Source of the DNA: Labilithrix sp. | Lineage (GTDB): Bacteria; Myxococcota_A; Polyangia; Polyangiales; Polyangiaceae | Direction of reading: 5' to 3' | Assembly: GCA_044227045.1 (NCBI GenBank) | Contig: JBGAFW010000002.1 | Span: forward strand, 67,457-131,456 | DNA length: 64,000 nucleotides | In this document: in pieces, positions 25,771-64,000 of the stretch | How the letters are laid out: every line of letters starts with the position of its first letter | Position numbering within the stretch: the stretch's first letter is position 1 | Position numbers and translations under genes: made by a program | The notes under the pieces: model-generated | What the model saw: only the letters and a program-made list of their open reading frames with translations | Database searches by the model: none | What the model was told of the DNA's origin: nothing

Positions 25771-27087
25771 ATGTGCACGTGCCATAGCGAGCTGTACACC
25801 AAACGTCGTCGCGCGTTCCTCGAAGCCATTCACGCCAAGGGCGATGACGGCGTCGCGGTCTTCGCGTCTGCCCCGGTCTTCACGCGCAACAACGACGTCG
25901 AGCACGAGTACAGGCAAGACTCCGATCTCTTCTACCTGACGGGCTTCGCCGAGCCGGGCACCGTGCTCGTGCTCGACGCGAAGGACAAGAAGTCGACGAT
26001 GTTCGTCCGCCCGCGCGATCCGGAGCGCGAGACGTGGGACGGACCGCGCGCAGGCGTGGACGGGGTGAAGGAGCATTTCGGCGCAGACGAGGCGTTCACG
26101 ATCGACAAGGTCGCCGAGGAGCTGCCGAAGCTCTTCCAGAACAAGAAGCGTCTCTATTACCGCCTCGGCCTGAACCGCCAGATGGACGACAAGATCCTCG
26201 AAGGGATCGATCGCGCGCGCGCCCGCGCGAAGCTCGGCTACTCGTGGCCGGTCGAGATCGTCGACCCCGGCACCATCCTCCACGAGATGCGCCTGTTCAA
26301 GAACAACGAAGACCTGAGCACGATGCGCAAGGCCGCCGACATCACCGCCGAGGCCCACCTCCGCGCGATGAAGGCCGCGAAGCCCGGCATGCACGAGTTC
26401 CAGGTCGAGGCGATGCTCCTCGAGACGTTCCGCATGCACGGCTCGGAGCGCCCCGCGTACGGGAGCATCGTCGGCTCCGGCAACAACGCGACGATCCTCC
26501 ACTACCGCCTCAACAACCGAAAAATGGAGGACGGCGACCTCCTCCTCATCGATGCGGGCTGCGAGTACGACTACTACGCGAGCGACGTGACGCGCACCTT
26601 CCCGATCAACGGGAAGTTCTCGAAGGAGCAGCAGGCGATCTACGAGCTCGTCCTCGACGCGCAAGAGGCAGGCATCGACAAGACGCGCAAGGGCAGCTCG
26701 CTCGAGCAGATCCATGCGACGTGCGTCGACGTCATCACGCGCGGCCTCGTGAAGCTCGGGTTGCTCACCGGTGACGTCGAGCAGCTGATCAAGGACGAGG
26801 CCTACAAGCCGTTCTTCATGCACAAGACGAGTCACTGGCTCGGCATGGACGTCCACGACGTCGGCAACTACTACGTCGGCGGCAAGGCCCGCGCGCTCGA
26901 GCCCGGCATGGTGCTCACGGTGGAGCCCGGCATCTACATCTCGAAGGACTACGACAAGGTCGCGCCCGAGTGGCGTGGCATCGGCGTCCGCATCGAAGAC
27001 GACATCCTCGTCACCGAGGGCGATCCGGACAACCTCACGCGATCGATCCCGAAGAAGGTCAGCGAGCTCACGAGCGCGATGGCCTGA
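25771..27087 (+). CDS. pepP: Xaa-Pro aminopeptidase (M24B)
   Basis: Pita-bread fold motifs (DAGCEYDYYASDVTRTFPING, HGTSHWLGMDVHDVG, EPGIYI, GIRIEDD). Confidence 0.85.
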   Translation: MCTCHSELYTKRRRAFLEAIHAKGDDGVAVFASAPVFTRNNDVEHEYRQDSDLFYLTGFAEPGTVLVLDAKDKKSTMFVRPRDPERETWDGPRAGVDGVKEHFGADEAFTIDKVAEELPKLFQNKKRLYYRLGLNRQMDDKILEGIDRARARAKLGYSWPVEIVDPGTILHEMRLFKNNEDLSTMRKAADITAEAHLRAMKAAKPGMHEFQVEAMLLETFRMHGSERPAYGSIVGSGNNATILHYRLNNRKMEDGDLLLIDAGCEYDYYASDVTRTFPINGKFSKEQQAIYELVLDAQEAGIDKTRKGSSLEQIHATCVDVITRGLVKLGLLTGDVEQLIKDEAYKPFFMHKTSHWLGMDVHDVGNYYVGGKARALEPGMVLTVEPGIYISKDYDKVAPEWRGIGVRIEDDILVTEGDPDNLTRSIPKKVSELTSAMA

Positions 27088-51395: not shown

Positions 51396-51455
51396 ATCGG
51401 AGCGACCCGGCCGTTCGGTCCAACCCGTCGGATCCACCTCGCGCGTCCGCCGAGG

Positions 51456-51666
51456 AAGCATGCGACCCCTGAGCGAGTCTTCGAGCGAAGGGGGATCCGT
51501 TTGCGCGGAGCGCAAATCGGTCGCATGCGCGGGGTTTGGGGCGGAGCCCCATGTTGAGCGTGAAGCATGCGACCCCTGAGCGAGTCTTCGAGCGAAGGGG
51601 GATCCGTTTGCGCGGAGCGCAAATCGGTCGCATGCGCGGGGTTTGGGGCAGAGCCCCAACGTGAAG
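51456..51666. repeat. Intergenic hairpin-repeat element, locus 2 (about 2 tandem units of roughly 105 bp)
   Basis: Same family as locus 1. The outer stem is GTCGCATGC/GCATGCGAC here versus GTCGTATGC/GCATACGAC at locus 1, a compensatory change. The GGAG-looped hairpins are conserved. Confidence 0.7.
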
Positions 51667-57309: not shown

Positions 57310-58911
57310 ATGCCCACCTTCAAGCTCGACGGAAAAGACATCCCCTTCGAAAAAGGGGACTCCATCATCAAGGCCGCGGCACGTCAGGGAATCGAAATCC
57401 CTCACTACTGCTGGCACCCAGGGCTCTCGGCGCCTGCGAACTGTCGCATGTGCCTCGTCGAGATCAAGCCCGCGGCGAACCAGCGCGCGATGATGCTCGA
57501 CATCCTCCAGTGGGATCCGGCGCTCGGCGACTACCGCCCGCAGCAGAAGCCGAAGCTTCAGCCTGCCTGCCAGTACCCCGCGACGGAAGGCCAAGAGGTC
57601 CTCGCCGACACGAGCAAGCACGTCGCCGAGGCGCGCTCCACCGTGCAGGAGCTGCTCCTCCTCAATCACCCGGTGGACTGCCCGATCTGCGACCAGGCCG
57701 GGGAGTGCAAGCTCCAAGACTACTGGCTCGAGCACCAGCACGCGCCGAAGCGCATGCGCGACGAGCCCATTCACAAGCCGAAGGCCGTCGTGTTCGGCCC
57801 CACGATCGTCTACGACGCCGAGCGCTGCGTCATGTGCACGCGCTGCATCCGCTTCATGGAAGAGGTCGCGAAGGATCCCGTCCTTGATATGCGCGAGCGC
57901 GGCAACCTGAACGAGATCTTCGTCGCGCCGGGTCGCCAGCTCGAAGGCCACTACACCTTCATGACCGAGCACGTGTGCCCGGTCGGCGCGCTCACGACGA
58001 AGGATTTCCGCTTCAAGGCGCGCGTGTGGTTCCTCCGCACCGCGAAGAGCATCTGCCAAGGCTGCGCGACGGGCTGCAACGCGCACCTCGACTTCGATCC
58101 GCGCTGGAACAAGGCGTATCGCTACCGCCCGCGCGACAACGAGGCGGTGAACAAGTACTGGATGTGCGACGAGGGCATGCTCTCGTACCGCGCCGCGCAC
58201 GTCGGCCGCGTCACGAACGCGAAGGTGAAGAGCAAGAAGGCGAGCGTCGACAGCGCCCTCGCCGAGATCACGAAGCGTTTCGGTGACACGCCGAAGGACT
58301 CGATCGCGTTCGTCCTCTCCGCGCAGCACTCGCTCGAGGACAACTGGGCGCTCCGCGAGCTCGCGCGTCTCGCCGGCTCGAAGACGATCTACGTCACCGG
58401 CGCAGGCCCCGGCTACAAGGACGACATCCTCATCGACGAGGACAAGAACCCGAACACCGCGGGCGTCGTCGAGCTCGTCCCCACGCTGCGTCCGTTCCCG
58501 CAGCTCATCGAAGACATCCGCCAGGGCAAGGTCGCGCACGTGATCGCGCTCGGCGGCGTCACGCCGCGAAACGACCCCGAGGACGCGACCGCGCTCGGCA
58601 TGGTCAGCGCGCTCGTGACCGTCGCGTCGCACGAAGGCGCGCTCACCGAGGCCGCGCACATCACGCTGCCGGCGACGTCGTGGGCCGAAGCCTCGGGGAC
58701 GTACGTCAACCGCCAGAATCTCCGCCAGCTCTCCGACAAGGCGATCGAGCCGCAAGGCTCGTCGAAGCCCGCGTGGGAGCAGCTCCGCGCGATCGCGATC
58801 GCGCTCGGCCTCGAGCCCACGTGGACGAAGCTGAAGGACGTCCGCTCGAACCTCATGGCCGCGGCGGCAGCGCCGTCGCAACCCACCCTCGAAGCACAGG
58901 TGACGCAATGA
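57310..58911 (+). CDS. nuoG: NADH-quinone oxidoreductase subunit G (short form, 533 aa)
   Basis: 2Fe-2S (CWHPGLSAPANCRMCLVE). 4Fe-4S His/Cys (HPVDCPICDQAGECKLQD, CVMCTRCIRF). Truncated molybdopterin-like domain. Confidence 0.85.
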   Translation: MPTFKLDGKDIPFEKGDSIIKAAARQGIEIPHYCWHPGLSAPANCRMCLVEIKPAANQRAMMLDILQWDPALGDYRPQQKPKLQPACQYPATEGQEVLADTSKHVAEARSTVQELLLLNHPVDCPICDQAGECKLQDYWLEHQHAPKRMRDEPIHKPKAVVFGPTIVYDAERCVMCTRCIRFMEEVAKDPVLDMRERGNLNEIFVAPGRQLEGHYTFMTEHVCPVGALTTKDFRFKARVWFLRTAKSICQGCATGCNAHLDFDPRWNKAYRYRPRDNEAVNKYWMCDEGMLSYRAAHVGRVTNAKVKSKKASVDSALAEITKRFGDTPKDSIAFVLSAQHSLEDNWALRELARLAGSKTIYVTGAGPGYKDDILIDEDKNPNTAGVVELVPTLRPFPQLIEDIRQGKVAHVIALGGVTPRNDPEDATALGMVSALVTVASHEGALTEAAHITLPATSWAEASGTYVNRQNLRQLSDKAIEPQGSSKPAWEQLRAIAIALGLEPTWTKLKDVRSNLMAAAAAPSQPTLEAQVTQ

Positions 58912-60332
58912 GCTTCGGAATGTCGGTCGTCTGGACCGCCGTAAAAATCCTCGTGATGGTCGGCTTCGTCGTGAACATCGGCGCGCTCCTCACGTGGTAC
59001 GACCGTCGCGGCGGCGCGATGATGCAAGATCGCGTCGGCCCGAACCGCGCAGGCTTCAAGCTGTTCGGGATCGAGATCCGGGTCGCCGGTCTCCTCCACA
59101 CCGCTGCCGACGGCCTCAAGTTCTTCACCAAGAAGGACTTCATGCCGCCGAAGGCAGACAAGCTCCTCTTCAGCCTCGCGCCGATGCTCGCGCTGGCGCC
59201 CGTCATCGCGCTCACAGCGGTCATTCCGTTTGGCGATGTCATCAGCCCCGAGTCGATCGTGCGCACGGTCTGCAAGAACGGCGCGCAGTACGCCGCGATG
59301 ACGAACGGCGCCTGCCCGCAAGGCTTCTCGCCCGAGACGGTGTGGCCGGCGGTCTCTCGCTACGGCCTCGCGAGCGCCGGCGGCTCCATCCCGCTCCAGA
59401 TCGCGCCGCTCAACGTCGGCATCCTCTACGTCTTCGCGATGGCCGGTCAGGGCATCGTAGGCGCCGCGATCGCAGGCTGGTCGAGCGACAACAAGTTCTC
59501 GCTCATGGGCGCCCTTCGCGCCGCGAGCCAGATGGTCAGCTACGAGGTCACGATGGGCCTCACGCTCATCGGCGCGATGATGATCTACGGCTCGGTTCGC
59601 CTCGAGGACATGGTGATGTGGCAGGGCGAGAACACGTGGGGCATCTACGTGCAGCCCGTCGCGTTCTTCTTGTTCTTCGCGTCCGCGATCGCCGAGACGA
59701 AGCGCATCCCGTTCGACCTCCCCGAGGCCGAGAGCGAGCTCGTCAGCGGGTACTTCACCGAGTACTCCGGCATGAAGTTCGGAATGTTCTACTTCGCCGA
59801 GTACATGGAAGTGGCGACGAGCTCGATGCTCCTCGTCACGATCTTCCTTGGCGGTTGGAACATGCCGTTCCTCCACCGTGACGGCCTCACGATCGCGTTC
59901 GGCGAGTCCGTGCTCCTCCACACGCGCCTGCCGCACATCTGGGTGACGATCATCGGCGTCCTCTCGTTCTTCGGGAAGACGATCCTCATCTGCTGGCTGC
60001 AAGCGTTCGTTCGCTGGAGCCTCCCGCGATTCCGCTACGACCAGCTCATGAAGCTCGGCTGGACCGTCCTCCTGCCGGCCTCGCTCGCGAACATCTTCGC
60101 GACGGGCATCGTGTGGCTGGCGCTCCAGTCTGCGGGCGACTCGACGGCGAACGGCCTCAAGGTCGCAGCCGACGTCACGCAAGGCATCACCGCCGCGACC
60201 CTCACGGGCCTCATCATCTGGGCGGTCATCGGCTTCGCACGAACACCTCCACACAACGAGTCGATCGTCGGCTCGAGCGCGAAGCTCGCGGCCGCAGCCG
60301 GCGGCACCAAAGAAGCGCCGATCACGGCGTAG
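58908..60332 (+). CDS. nuoH: NADH-quinone oxidoreductase subunit H, with insertions and a C-terminal extension (474 aa)
   Basis: VGPNRAG, GWSSDNKFSLMGALRAASQMVSYEV, IPFDLPEAESELVSGYFTEYSGMKFG, LPRFRYDQLMKLGW. The ATG overlaps the nuoG stop (ATGA). Confidence 0.9.
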   Translation: MSFGMSVVWTAVKILVMVGFVVNIGALLTWYDRRGGAMMQDRVGPNRAGFKLFGIEIRVAGLLHTAADGLKFFTKKDFMPPKADKLLFSLAPMLALAPVIALTAVIPFGDVISPESIVRTVCKNGAQYAAMTNGACPQGFSPETVWPAVSRYGLASAGGSIPLQIAPLNVGILYVFAMAGQGIVGAAIAGWSSDNKFSLMGALRAASQMVSYEVTMGLTLIGAMMIYGSVRLEDMVMWQGENTWGIYVQPVAFFLFFASAIAETKRIPFDLPEAESELVSGYFTEYSGMKFGMFYFAEYMEVATSSMLLVTIFLGGWNMPFLHRDGLTIAFGESVLLHTRLPHIWVTIIGVLSFFGKTILICWLQAFVRWSLPRFRYDQLMKLGWTVLLPASLANIFATGIVWLALQSAGDSTANGLKVAADVTQGITAATLTGLIIWAVIGFARTPPHNESIVGSSAKLAAAAGGTKEAPITA

Positions 60333-60357
60333 CCTTCGTAGGCTCAGAAGACAGGCG

Positions 60358-61398
60358 TCAGAAGACGTCAGTCTTGTCGTTCCGCGCGTTCGCGGTCCGC
60401 GGCGCATCCATCGCGACGCGGATCTCGCGAACCTGCTCGGGCGTGACCTCGACGGTGAGGCTCTTGCGCGCGCCGTTCGGCGCCGTGAGGACGAGCACGT
60501 GCCGTCCAGCGATGACCGGTCGATGGAAGACATGGCCGGGGCCGATCGGGACGCCGTTGTCGAAGATGGCGTCGCATTTCGGCAGGCACACCACCGTGAG
60601 CGCTCCCATGCGATTCGGCGCGGCCAGCGGCGCGCCGCTCATGTTCGCGCTCGCGTTCGGGTCGTCCTCGTCGGTGGGCGGAGCGACCATCGCAGGTCGT
60701 CGTCGACGGATCGCGGCGGTCGTGGTCGGCGGCGGGGAGGGGTGCGTGTCCGCCAGCGAGGCGCCGATCACGACGCCGTGCGGTGAGGGAGCCGACGGTT
60801 CGTTGTCGATCGACGCCGTCGCCGCGGGCGTGACGACCGGCAGGGCCGGCGCAGGCGTCGTGAACGGGATCGTCGAGGCATGCTCCGCCGGCGCAAAGGC
60901 GAGCTGATCGATCCCGAGGATCGTCGCCCCAAGGAGCGTCGCGGCGGCGGCACCTGCGAGCGCGACCTTCCACGCCTCGCGGCGTTCGAGCCGATGAAGG
61001 ACGCCCGTTGTCAGCGCGGTCGACTCCTGCCGCTTCACGCGCCGCTCGTCTCCGTCACCGGTGCGTTGAAGCTCTGCGAGGCGTGCGGCGATGGCTTGCT
61101 CCTCGGCCTTCGCCGCCTCGAGGTCGGCGCGCGCGCGGGCGATCGCAGCGCGAAGCGCGTCCGCACGTCGAGCGAGCGCATCGAGCTCGGCGTTGACGTG
61201 CTGACCGGAGGCTGCGGTGGTTGCGGAGGCTGCGGCGCTTGCGGAGGTTGCGGCGGCTGCGGTGCCTGCGGGGGCTGCGGCGCTTGTTGCGGCTGGGGCT
61301 GCGGCGCTTGTTGCGGCTGCGGTGCCTGCGGGGGCTGTGGTGTTTGTTGGGGCGAACGTGGTCTCGAGCTCGTGTTGCCGCCCGTCGTCGCTGCTCAT
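60358..61398 (-). CDS. PEGA-domain protein with Ala/Thr-rich repeats, a coiled-coil and a TM segment; antisense between nuoH and nuoI (start could be 61497)
   Basis: C-terminal PEGA ([43 protein letters not shown]). TM segment ([18 protein letters not shown]). Contains the 60-bp tandem DNA repeat. Confidence 0.55.
61207..61350. repeat. Imperfect tandem repeat of about 60 bp (2 copies) with nested GCGGCTGCGG-type 9-12 bp sub-repeats, inside the PEGA gene
   Basis: GGCTGCGGTGCCTGCGGGGGCTG recurs at 61255 and 61315. It encodes the [15 protein letters not shown] low-complexity segment. Confidence 0.5.
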
Positions 61399-61527
61399 GA
61401 GGTCATCGTATCCGTTCCTCGTTCGCGGGCGAGCGGCCACCTCGGCCGCGAAAAGCCCGCCCGCTGGCCGTGCCCGCGATCCATTGTGGAATTCCACGTG
61501 ATTTCTGGGTATGGTCGCCCCAAACCG

Positions 61528-62187
61528 ATGCCGCGAGCCTTTCCAAAGAAGCCTGCCTCACCGACCAACGCGAAGGTGGTCGAGTACGTCGAGAAGACCG
61601 CGACCGTGCAGTCTTACCTCCCGGAGATCTTCAAAGGTCTCGGCACGACGATGCGCCACTTCTTCAAGAACACGCGCGACATGGTTCGAGGCATCCGCCC
61701 CGACCCGGTGACGGAGCGATGGGAAGACGGCGTCACGACGATCAGCTACCCGGAGCAGAAGCGACCCTACCCAGAGCGCTTCCGCGGCGTTCACCGCCTC
61801 ACGCTTCGCGAAGACAACAGCCCGCGTTGCGTCGCGTGCCTCTGCTGCTCCACGGCATGCCCCGCGCAGTGCATCTTCATCGAGGCGGGCGAGTACCCCG
61901 AAGGCGACAAGCGTCGCGGCTACGAGCGCTTCCCGGTGAAGTTCGTCATCGACGAGCTGCGCTGCATCTTCTGCGGCTTCTGCGTGGAGGCGTGCCCGTG
62001 CGATGCCATCCGTATGGACACGGGCATCCACGCCGTGCCGTACGACTCGCGCGACCAGTTCATCTACGGCAAAGACATCCTCACCGGCATGACCGCGCGC
62101 GACGGCTCGAAGGAGACCGCGAATCCGCGTCACGAGCCGGGCGATCCGACGCACCCTGGTCTCACGCGCGACCATATCCATCACTGA
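61528..62187 (+). CDS. nuoI: NADH-quinone oxidoreductase subunit I (2x[4Fe-4S])
   Basis: [12 protein letters not shown] and [12 protein letters not shown]. Internal ATG (MPRAFPKKP); the upstream part of track ORF 60880 is antisense to the PEGA gene. Confidence 0.9.
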
Positions 62188-62223
62188 CTTGCGCTTTGGC
62201 CCGAGTCGCGCTGCGATCGGGTC

Positions 62224-62937
62224 ATGACGAGCGCCGATCTCACGGGACGTATTGGCGGCTACAAGGGCGTGGCGATCCGTTGTCCGGGTTGCGGCGAGCC
62301 GATGCGCCAACACAACCTCGAGGAGGCGAAGGCGGAGGTCGACGTCTGCGACGCGTGCGGCGGCATGTGGGTCGACTGGTTCGACGGCGAGGTCCGCGTG
62401 ATCGCGACGGAGACCTTGCGCACGAGCGATCCCGGCCCAGCGCCTGCAGCAGCCACCACAGCCACCACGGCCACGACCACGACCACGACCACGACCACCG
62501 TCGCCGCGCCTTCGTCGAAGGACGAAGGCCGCCCGTCCCGCAACGAGGCCGTCGCGATCGGCGCGTGTCCACGCTGTCATGCGCGCCAGCTCGTCGCGGA
62601 GCGCTACGAGGTGAAAGCGGAGGTCGCGAGCGCCCGCATCGAAGACCGGACTTCGATCGTCGCAGGAAAGACGGGCGCCGAGCTCCTCCGATGCGAGGAC
62701 TGCATGGGCTCGTTCGTCTCGCGATCGAGCGCGGAGGTCCTCTCGTGGCTCTCGTCGCACCATGACGAGCCGCCGCCGCAAAGCCAGGCGCGCCCCGACG
62801 CGACGAAGGCGCTCAAGCCCGTACCGTGGGATCGCTTCGTGGCCCTCATGAAAGGCCTGCTAGGCCTTCGCAAAGAGGGCGCAGCGAAGGCTGAAGCGAA
62901 GCCCGAAGCGAAGAAGCCCGCAGCCAAGCCAACGTGA
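62224..62937 (+). CDS. Double zinc-ribbon (zf-TFIIB-like) protein with a poly-Thr run and a Lys/Ala/Pro tail
   Basis: CPGCGEPM...CDACGGMWVDWFD and CPRCHARQL...CEDCMGSFV. The run TTATTATTTTTTTTT comes from (ACS)n at about 62452-62500. Confidence 0.6.
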   Translation: MTSADLTGRIGGYKGVAIRCPGCGEPMRQHNLEEAKAEVDVCDACGGMWVDWFDGEVRVIATETLRTSDPGPAPAAATTATTATTTTTTTTTVAAPSSKDEGRPSRNEAVAIGACPRCHARQLVAERYEVKAEVASARIEDRTSIVAGKTGAELLRCEDCMGSFVSRSSAEVLSWLSSHHDEPPPQSQARPDATKALKPVPWDRFVALMKGLLGLRKEGAAKAEAKPEAKKPAAKPT

Positions 62938-63093
62938 CCCGCACTCAACGTGACCCGCACCGCGATGCCCGAAGCGAAGCCAACGTGACCCGCACTGCGA
63001 TGCCCGAAGCGAAGCCAACGTGACCCGCACCGCGATGCCCGAAGCGAAGCCAACGTGACCCGCACCGCGATGCCCGAAGCGAAGCCAACGTGC
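62927..63093. repeat. Perfect 35-bp tandem repeat, about 4.5 copies (GATGCCCGAAGCGAAGCCAACGTGACCCGCACYGC)
   Basis: The period of 35 was verified at 62964, 62999, 63034 and 63069. Each unit carries ATGCCCGAAGCGAAGCCAACGTGA (M-P-E-A-K-P-T-stop). The last unit has TGA changed to TGC and reads through into the VOC gene. Confidence 0.85.
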
Positions 63094-63096
63094 GCG

Positions 63097-63498
63097 ATGC
63101 ACGTCGTCCTCTACGTCCGCGACCAAGCGGCGAGCCGCGACTTCTATGCGGCGGTGCTCGAACGAACGCCGCGCCTCGACGTGCCAGGAATGACGGAGAT
63201 CGAGATCGCGCCAGGAGCCGTCCTCGCGCTGATGCCAGAGTCTGGCATCACACGTCTACTCGGAGGTGCGATCGACCCATCGAAGCTCGAGGCGCCAGGC
63301 CGCGCCGAGCTCTATCTCCTCGTCGACGACCCGCAGTCGCATCACGCGAGGGCGCTCGCGTATGGCGCACGTGAGCTATCGCCGTTCGAAGCGCGCGACT
63401 GGGGCCATAACGCGGCCTACAGCCTCGACGCCGACGGGTACGTCCTCGCGTTCGCAGAGCCGCGCGCTCAATCGAAGGGGTTGTCAGGAATGCGGTAG
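63097..63498 (+). CDS. VOC-family (glyoxalase/bleomycin-resistance fold) protein
   Basis: MHVVLYVRDQAASRDFYAAVL...EIEIAPGAVLALM...YVLAFAE. Alternative upstream starts inside the repeat array (ATG at 63055 or 63076) are in frame. Confidence 0.65.
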   Translation: MHVVLYVRDQAASRDFYAAVLERTPRLDVPGMTEIEIAPGAVLALMPESGITRLLGGAIDPSKLEAPGRAELYLLVDDPQSHHARALAYGARELSPFEARDWGHNAAYSLDADGYVLAFAEPRAQSKGLSGMR

Positions 63499-63983
63499 AG
63501 CATCGGCGGCACGAAGTGCTTGTCCGGCCGAAGGACCGCGCGTCGAAACACGTACACGATCCCGTAGCTCCGCTCGAAGTGCCTGAGCAGCTCGTCGTCG
63601 GTGCGAAGGAGCCTGGTGAACACCCCCGCCACGACGCCCTGCTCGAACACGACGCGAAACGCACGCTCGAACGCCTTCAGCCCCATCCGTGTAAACTGCA
63701 CGTAAACGCGCCGCCGGTCCCAGTCGTCGCCGAAACGCCGCACGAACCCAAGCTCCGCGAGCCGCCTCGCCATCTTCGAAATCGTCGAAGGATGAAGCCC
63801 CAAGTGCTTCCGCAGCTGCCGCAGCGTGCACTGCTTCCCTTCGAGCGAAATGGCGTAGAGAAAATCGAACCGCGCCGGCGTCATCTCATCGACGAGCACC
63901 TGAAGCGCGTGCCGAATCCTCCGGCTCCCTAAACGCGCCTCCACGGCGTCGTCCCGAAAGACCTTCCGCCCAAGAGCGACCAT
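63468..63983 (-). CDS. MarR-family transcriptional regulator
   Basis: Winged HTH (LEGKQCTLRQLRKHLGLHPSTISKMARRLAELGFVRR). Confidence 0.8.
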   Translation of the reverse strand: MVALGRKVFRDDAVEARLGSRRIRHALQVLVDEMTPARFDFLYAISLEGKQCTLRQLRKHLGLHPSTISKMARRLAELGFVRRFGDDWDRRRVYVQFTRMGLKAFERAFRVVFEQGVVAGVFTRLLRTDDELLRHFERSYGIVYVFRRAVLRPDKHFVPPMLYRIPDNPFD

Positions 63984-64000
63984 GGCGAGGTGACAGTGCT

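Follow-up and report, generated by a model that had tools for sequence, protein, structure and literature searches.

Mycobacterial interspersed repetitive units (MIRUs; Supply et al. 1997, summarised in PMC3184786) are tandem units of 40-100 bp that lie between the genes of polycistrons and contain small open reading frames (ORFs) whose ends overlap the flanking genes. According to the same account, they are a family dispersed over some 40-50 loci in each genome, carry imperfect GC-rich inverted repeats both at their ends and internally, and are presumed to insert by transposition. Neighbouring co-directional genes can also be joined by translational coupling through termination and reinitiation. 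Coupled gene pairs mostly overlap by 4 or 1 nucleotides (nt) (PMC10666635, PMC6728339), and reinitiation drops steeply with distance: about 10 nt is marginal, about 20 nt leaves hardly any coupling in the pairs tested, and a distance of 38 nt brings an 80-100% loss of coupling in E. coli (PMC10666635). Here we describe a tandem array of 35-bp units that invites comparison with both of these arrangements. It lies between a gene for a zinc-ribbon protein and a gene for a VOC/glyoxalase-fold protein in a stretch of 64,000 nt from Labilithrix sp. (GenBank assembly GCA_044227045.1, contig JBGAFW010000002.1, positions 67,457 to 131,456 of the forward strand; G+C content 67.4%), hereafter the window, whose numbering is used throughout. 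The array was initially picked out in an inspection of the letters and their ORFs alone, which we call the sequence-only reading. With a probability of roughly 0.78, we consider the array to be a lineage-specific minisatellite that arose by tandem duplication and amplification of a 35-bp segment spanning the junction between the two co-directional genes.

Tandem Repeats Finder (TRF) delimits the array at 62946-63092, with a period of 35, 4.2 copies, 98% matches and a score of 287, the second-highest in the window. The 35-mer CAACGTGACCCGCACCGCGATGCCCGAAGCGAAGC recurs at an exact 35-bp spacing at 62946, 62981, 63016 and 63051, with 0, 1, 0 and 0 mismatches respectively, and none of 100 dinucleotide-preserving shuffles contained any match to it. 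These four full 35-nt units (CAACGTGACCCGCACYGCGATGCCCGAAGCGAAGC; + strand, 62946-63085), recovered by TRF, the 35-mer scan and the array layout, adjoin directly without spacers, and their sole difference is a T for C at 62996. They are preceded by a short 16-nt copy, CAACGTGACCCGCACT (+ strand, 62930-62945; TRF row 62930-62960, period 16, 100%), which equals the unit minus the 19 nt GCGATGCCCGAAGCGAAGC and has the T variant at its end. This short copy contains the genuine stop codon of the zinc-ribbon gene (TGA, 62935-62937) and is opened by the final 8 bases of that gene (62930-62937), whose tail, ...GCC AAG C, forms the left flank. At the other end lies a last, truncated junction copy, CAACGTG^CGCG (+ strand, 63086-63096), which shows an 8-nt deletion, ACCCGCAC, relative both to the units and to the two nearest relatives described below, and which is followed directly by ATG CAC GTC..., the VOC gene itself, from 63097. 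A 15-nt core, CAACGTGACCCGCAC, occurs five times without mismatch in the array, the fifth occurrence being at 62930; elsewhere in the 64 kb, the 35-mer and the core have no second locus beyond one 2-mismatch match of the core at 26583. The sequence-only reading had therefore correctly recognised a period-35 tandem array that begins within the 3' end of the zinc-ribbon gene, though the array is near-perfect rather than perfect as it had claimed. Its further point, that the array is neither a coding repeat nor a CRISPR array, also holds, since the period is not a multiple of 3 and the units abut without spacers.

When set in the register of the gene junction, the unit resolves into three parts: CCGAAGCGAAGCCAACGTGA, the 20-nt end of the upstream gene (TGA and the six codons before it, of which the first is short of its first base); CCCGCACCGCG, an 11-nt spacer; and ATGC, the first 4 nt of the VOC gene. 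The proposal that the unit duplicates the end of the zinc-ribbon gene was accordingly sound for the last codons and the stop, and had overlooked the spacer and the VOC start codon. Counted this way, the array comprises 5 junction copies: the first is enlarged by 15 nt of gene tail and by the 16-nt short copy, the next three are intact, and the last has the 8-nt deletion.

The corresponding junctions of the two nearest relatives each contain this segment once. The Logan assembly of SRR30350723 (L001) carries the single 83%-identical relative of the zinc-ribbon protein (P0002); its zinc-ribbon gene occupies 232-963 and its VOC gene starts at 975, leaving 11 nt from stop to start, and the junction reads ...AAG AAG CCA ACG TGA CGCGCAGCGCG ATG CAC GTT.... 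The ENA assembly ERZ28614430 (L025) carries a protein 97% identical to the VOC protein (P0121); here position 115 is the last of the upstream gene and 127 the first of the VOC gene, which leaves 11 nt between them as in L001, and the junction reads ...GCG AAG CCA ACG TGA CCCGCAGCGCG ATG CAT GTC.... From GAAGCGAAGCCAACGTGA through ATGC, the unit is identical to the L025 junction but for one base, and in a pairwise alignment with L001 the entire array forms one insertion. At the DNA level, the VOC gene of the window is 95.0% identical to that of L001 and 95.0% identical to that of L025, while L001 and L025 are 97.7% identical to each other. The comparison of copy number across relatives that had been suggested at the outset thus gives 5 junction copies here versus 1 each in L001 and L025, and the array's structure, its local origin and its single-copy counterparts in both nearest relatives can be read directly from these alignments. 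The VOC start lies 159 nt from the zinc-ribbon stop here, versus 11 nt in the relatives, a shift that the array would appear to have brought about.

More distant relatives were checked in the form of 23 genome loci (L002-L024) and the contigs of three further proteins (P0124, P0123 and P0008). In the loci, tblastn searches where DNA was present gave no VOC match beside the zinc-ribbon gene, and the genes called on the three contigs likewise lacked the zinc-ribbon/VOC adjacency. In these relatives the zinc-ribbon gene follows nuoI and the VOC gene lies elsewhere, with VOC homologues of about 80% identity found in other contexts. As judged from these loci, the adjacency is limited to a small clade comprising the window, L001 and L025, and the distant relatives therefore cannot polarise the duplication event.

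The left end of the unit is provided by a low-complexity tract of 12- and 15-nt repeats (+ strand, 62883-62928; TRF rows 62883-62913, period 12, and 62898-62928, period 15), which codes for the AKAEAKPEAKKPAAK tail of the zinc-ribbon protein. The length of this C-terminal AK/P/E tail differs in all three lineages (AAKAEAKPEAKKPAAKPT in the window, AAKPDAKKPT in L001 and AAKPDAKKPDANNPEAKNHAAKPT in L025), and the tract is therefore unstable; the region is evidently prone to slippage.

These observations suggest the following history. The ancestral junction would have read ...AAG CCA ACG TGA, the 11-nt spacer and ATG CAC..., and an initial tandem duplication of the junction segment, at the level of microhomology, would have created the joint ATGC/CCGAAG, which makes PEAKPT-stop an in-frame continuation of the VOC start codon. 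The low-complexity tail GAAGCGAAGCC would then have seeded slipped-strand mispairing or unequal recombination that raised the copy number, and later small indels would account for the loss of 19 nt from the first copy, the 15 nt by which the unit differs from the gene tail of today and the loss of 8 nt from the last copy. The mini-ORFs described below would be an automatic by-product of this process, because the new joint fuses the VOC ATG to the last six codons and stop of the upstream gene; the ATG of each mini-ORF is, to judge from this register, the VOC gene's own start codon. A recent origin by slippage or unequal crossover, as the sequence-only reading had put forward, agrees well with the single copy found in two relatives that are about 95% identical. 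Slippage or unequal crossover as the mechanism, expansion here rather than collapse in the relatives as the polarity, and near-neutrality as the outcome are all what we infer from the comparison. For the polarity, the basis is the near-identity of the units (98-100%) versus the 5% divergence between lineages, together with what is effectively one sister lineage.

Several points weigh against this history. The polarity depends on two relatives, L001 and L025, that are mutually sister and so amount to one comparison, and no outgroup keeps the zinc-ribbon/VOC adjacency; the array may instead be ancestral and have collapsed in the lineage of L001 and L025. The unit lacks the 15 nt AAGCCCGCAGCCAAG that are common to the present gene tail and L025, and therefore at least one extra indel has to be assumed. 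The copy number comes from a single assembly. Moreover, the in-frame fusion through an 8-nt deletion and the exact retention of the 11-nt spacer could be read as signs of selection, a reading that is weakened because the chance of an in-frame outcome is 1 in 3 and recent copying yields identical spacers.

The consequences of the array for the reading frames of the locus are as follows. Its layout contains three terminated mini-ORFs, each MPEAKPT followed by TGA (+ strand, 62965-62988, 63000-63023 and 63035-63058), which occupy three different frames. The gap from the zinc-ribbon stop to the first mini-ORF ATG is 27 nt, and that from each mini-ORF stop to the next ATG is 11 nt, at three successive hops. 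The fourth ATG (63070) reads MPEAKPTCA and on into the VOC gene in frame, which gives an extended VOC reading frame of 142 aa (MPEAKPTCA plus VOC; + strand, 63070-63498) in the ORF list and the array layout. This is so because the 8-nt deletion ACCCGCAC removes the stop TGA and places the VOC ATG 27 nt rather than 35 nt after the fourth ATG; the 142-aa frame is possible solely through this deletion. The M-P-E-A-K-P-T-stop mini-ORFs starting at 62965, 63000 and 63035 are hence as the sequence-only reading had them, with the correction that there are three terminated and one fused, not four and a fusion. The in-frame fusion of the last copy to VOC stands as well, although its cause is the deletion and not the TGA-to-TGC substitution that had been supposed.

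If the fourth ATG were used, the VOC protein would gain a 9-residue N-terminal extension, and its N-terminus may read MPEAKPTCAMHVV... as against MHVV.... The VOC proteins of L001 and L025, which are 95-97% identical, share the start methionine of MHVV, and the gene caller for the source contig places the 133-aa VOC protein at the same MHVV start; the protein collection includes the 133-aa form and lacks the 142- and 147-aa forms. Readthrough of the zinc-ribbon stop into VOC was also considered and set aside: the zinc-ribbon and VOC genes do share a frame here, interrupted by only two TGA-C stops (62935 and 62986), but we put this down to a coincidence of the indels, and in the relatives the two genes are out of frame.

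The reading that competes most directly with a by-product takes the array for a functional leader, a copy-number-variable translational relay or attenuator in which reinitiation 11 nt downstream each time tunes VOC and the last unit gives rise to an extended VOC isoform. We regard this as unlikely. The spacing from stop to ATG does keep the ancestral 11 nt at each of three consecutive hops, and with a stop-11 nt-ATG module repeated three times, reinitiation from mini-ORF to mini-ORF is possible in principle. Additionally, neither VOC nor the unit ATGs nor the two genes upstream are preceded by a Shine-Dalgarno-like motif, and initiation may therefore depend in part on upstream translation. The layout also parallels that of MIRU repeats, whose small ORFs overlap the genes on either side within a polycistron (PMC3184786). 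A further point in favour is that the array RNA shows no structure: its fold has z +1.22, and 178 of 200 shuffles do at least equally well. Against these stand the first hop of 27 nt, in view of the steep dependence of reinitiation on distance (PMC10666635), the fact that identical spacing is the plain outcome of recent copying, and the relatives, which manage with a single junction. Copy-number variability within a population finds no support, and the gain or loss of a unit can neither open nor close the VOC frame: an ATG and a TGA are present in every unit and the fusion involves the last copy alone, so that a change of 35 nt either way leaves the frame intact. The relay is thus conceivable, if weak at its first step. 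The fuller proposal, in which the array would be an evolved, copy-number-tunable reinitiation relay working through three 7-codon mini-ORFs, with the number of units setting the amount of VOC per zinc-ribbon protein, an extended MPEAKPTCA-VOC isoform, and the whole a counterpart of the MIRU arrangement in mycobacterial operons that arose at this locus, strikes us as distinctly improbable. Of the regulatory roles that the sequence-only reading had offered, phase variation is not borne out, as the frame is kept and no promoter is predicted in the array. Control dependent on upstream ORFs fares no better, as there is neither an alternative RNA structure nor a + strand terminator; leader-peptide attenuation was rejected on the same fold statistics and terminator scan, together with the lack of an Rfam match. 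Most likely the array is a by-product that is near-neutral or lowers expression slightly, and not an evolved device.

The remaining explanations are weaker still. It is very unlikely that the array or its copy number was made by an assembler looping through a short repeat. The window does come from one NCBI contig of 285 kb in a single assembly, and units 3 and 4 together with the 7 nt that follow present 96 nt of perfect periodicity, which is beyond short k-mers. Nevertheless, four distinct copy types are present (the 16-nt short copy, the T variant, the perfect unit and the copy with the 8-nt deletion), and assemblers do not invent variants; furthermore, the joint ATGC/CCGAAG requires at least two real copies. 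At most, one identical middle unit too many or too few could have been counted. We give next to no credence to an array of protein-binding sites, in which direct repeats would be bound cooperatively by a regulator, for instance the neighbouring MarR-type protein, so as to control VOC. It would suit regular direct repeats upstream of a gene that adjoins a MarR regulator gene. The unit, on the other hand, is fully accounted for as coding tail, spacer and start codon; no inverted repeat or palindrome is found inside it; its 35-bp spacing would correspond to a non-integral number of helical turns; relatives with a convergent - strand gene at the same position have one copy; and no sigma-70-like promoter was found in 62100-63600. 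Equally remote is the insertion of a dispersed repeat element, be it MIRU-, REP- or MITE-like, between the two genes. An intergenic site in a probable operon, with small ORFs touching the flanking genes, is what would be expected of a MIRU-like element, yet the unit is the local junction sequence itself, neither the 64-kb window nor the genome and metagenome collections searched have a second locus, and there are neither terminal inverted repeats nor a stable fold (two units taken as DNA fold no better than shuffles, z +1.38).

The wider searches gave a consistent picture. The repeat joint had 0 matches in genome contigs representing one genome for each of 185,579 species, and 0 matches in JGI metagenome contigs. 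A degenerate pattern that also fits the single-copy junction likewise had 0 matches in the JGI metagenome contigs, and so yielded no further relatives. Rfam gave nothing relevant in 58000-64000 apart from a chance-level match away from the array. The scan of 62100-63600 found no + strand terminator-like site, and a weak - strand site at 62331 that is not beyond the shuffle level. Finally, a survey of about 219 kb (the window and 28 related loci) for arrays with a period of at least 15, at least 2.5 copies and at least 85% match recovered three others, all with multiple-of-3 periods and more diverged, leaving this array unique in kind.

The genes that flank the array were identified by Pfam in agreement with the initial assignments. 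The upstream neighbour encodes a 237-aa Zn_ribbon_TFIIB-domain protein (+ strand, 62224-62937; PF13453, E 1.5e-11) with 136 homologues, which come from Labilithrix, Polyangiaceae and other Myxococcota metagenome-assembled genomes. Apart from its C-terminal tail, this gene has a second hypervariable low-complexity tract at 62450-62498, where a run of ACCACG hexamers codes for the Thr/Ala linker TTATTATTTTTTTTT; P0002, the 83%-identical protein, has a different and longer Ser-Pro linker at this site. A gene for a NuoI-like 4Fe-4S ferredoxin (+ strand, 61528-62187; Pfam Fer4) is co-directional with the zinc-ribbon gene and ends 36 nt upstream of it. Homologues of this nuoI-like gene, 81-90% identical, stand directly upstream of the zinc-ribbon gene in 15 full-length Labilithrix/Polyangiaceae loci, and the start of L001 has an additional 64-aa partial nuoI-like match before its zinc-ribbon gene. 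A complex I subunit gene and the gene for an uncharacterised double zinc-ribbon protein thus form a conserved pairing (61528-62937 here; loci L001-L018), and a VOC gene follows this pair in the window, L001 and L025 only. The 133-aa VOC/glyoxalase-fold protein (+ strand, 63097-63498; PF00903/PF18029) starts at the conserved MHVV. Convergent with it is a gene for a MarR-family regulator (- strand, 63468-63983; Pfam MarR), whose promoter lies beyond the window. The 3' ends of the two genes overlap by 31 nt (63468-63498), and in L025 a convergent - strand gene overlaps the 3' end of VOC likewise.

Two other repeats of the window are of separate interest. At 51455-51658, TRF reports a 107-nt unit in 1.9 copies with 98% identity. 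Each unit is predicted to fold into two hairpins, a long one that encloses an inner stem (GCAUGCGACC...GGUCGCAUGC) and a short GGGGC/GCCCC one (-52 kcal/mol, z -2.74). It has no Rfam match, and only overlapping mechanical ORFs are listed at the site. It looks like a structured, putatively intergenic element of the REP/MITE-like kind or a duplicated small RNA. At 61206-61353 lies a dense, imperfect tract of 9-, 18-, 27- and 36-nt repeats, CGGAGGCTG-like and in up to 8 copies by TRF, on the opposite strand to a 379-aa Ala/Thr-rich ORF (minus strand, 60358-61497); it is probably a low-complexity coding repeat.

The 35-bp array has no bearing on a major open question. It does offer a clean and datable example of how a tandem duplication that spans a gene junction yields mini-ORFs and a possible N-terminal extension without selection, and hence a caution against inferring function from such by-product ORFs. 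It is also a potential strain-typing marker for an uncultured Labilithrix-like myxobacterial lineage and, if its copy number is variable, would supply a natural series for measuring the decay of reinitiation over repeated short hops.

With respect to known systems, the array differs in kind from phase-variable contingency loci, despite sharing with them a repeat tract that lies beside or inside a gene and is prone to copy-number change. Such loci switch by frameshift or promoter spacing, whereas the units here are self-contained ATG-to-stop cassettes in a tract with no predicted promoter. The likeness to translational coupling by termination and reinitiation (PMC10666635, PMC6728339) lies in two co-directional genes that were probably 11 nt apart ancestrally, in the lack of a Shine-Dalgarno-like motif, and in the repetition of that spacing between mini-ORFs. 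Unlike most coupled pairs, which overlap, this pair has a gap of 11 nt, at the limit of the range in which coupling works, and the first gap of the array measures 27 nt; any coupling here would be a prediction from sequence. The array is alike to MIRUs in having tandem units of tens of bp between co-directional genes, with small ORFs that touch the flanks: a stop in the first copy, three mini-ORFs, and a last one fused to VOC. It is different in that its unit is 35 bp, single-locus within the window and the collections searched, locally derived and unstructured. Because MIRUs are dispersed and have inverted repeats and signs of insertion, the array is MIRU-like in layout and stands outside the MIRU family. 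With the bacterial minisatellites, or variable-number tandem repeats (VNTRs), it shares head-to-tail, near-identical units in the 10-100 bp class that are seeded in a low-complexity tract. As in those repeats, the copy number varies from one close lineage to another (5 junction copies in the window versus 1 in each of L001 and L025, at about 95% nucleotide identity), this difference being known between lineages from single assemblies. What sets it apart from them is a unit that spans a stop, a spacer and the next start, such that each copy recreates a start/stop module. The closest kind is therefore the ordinary bacterial VNTR or minisatellite, and the MIRU is the closest named analogue of its layout.

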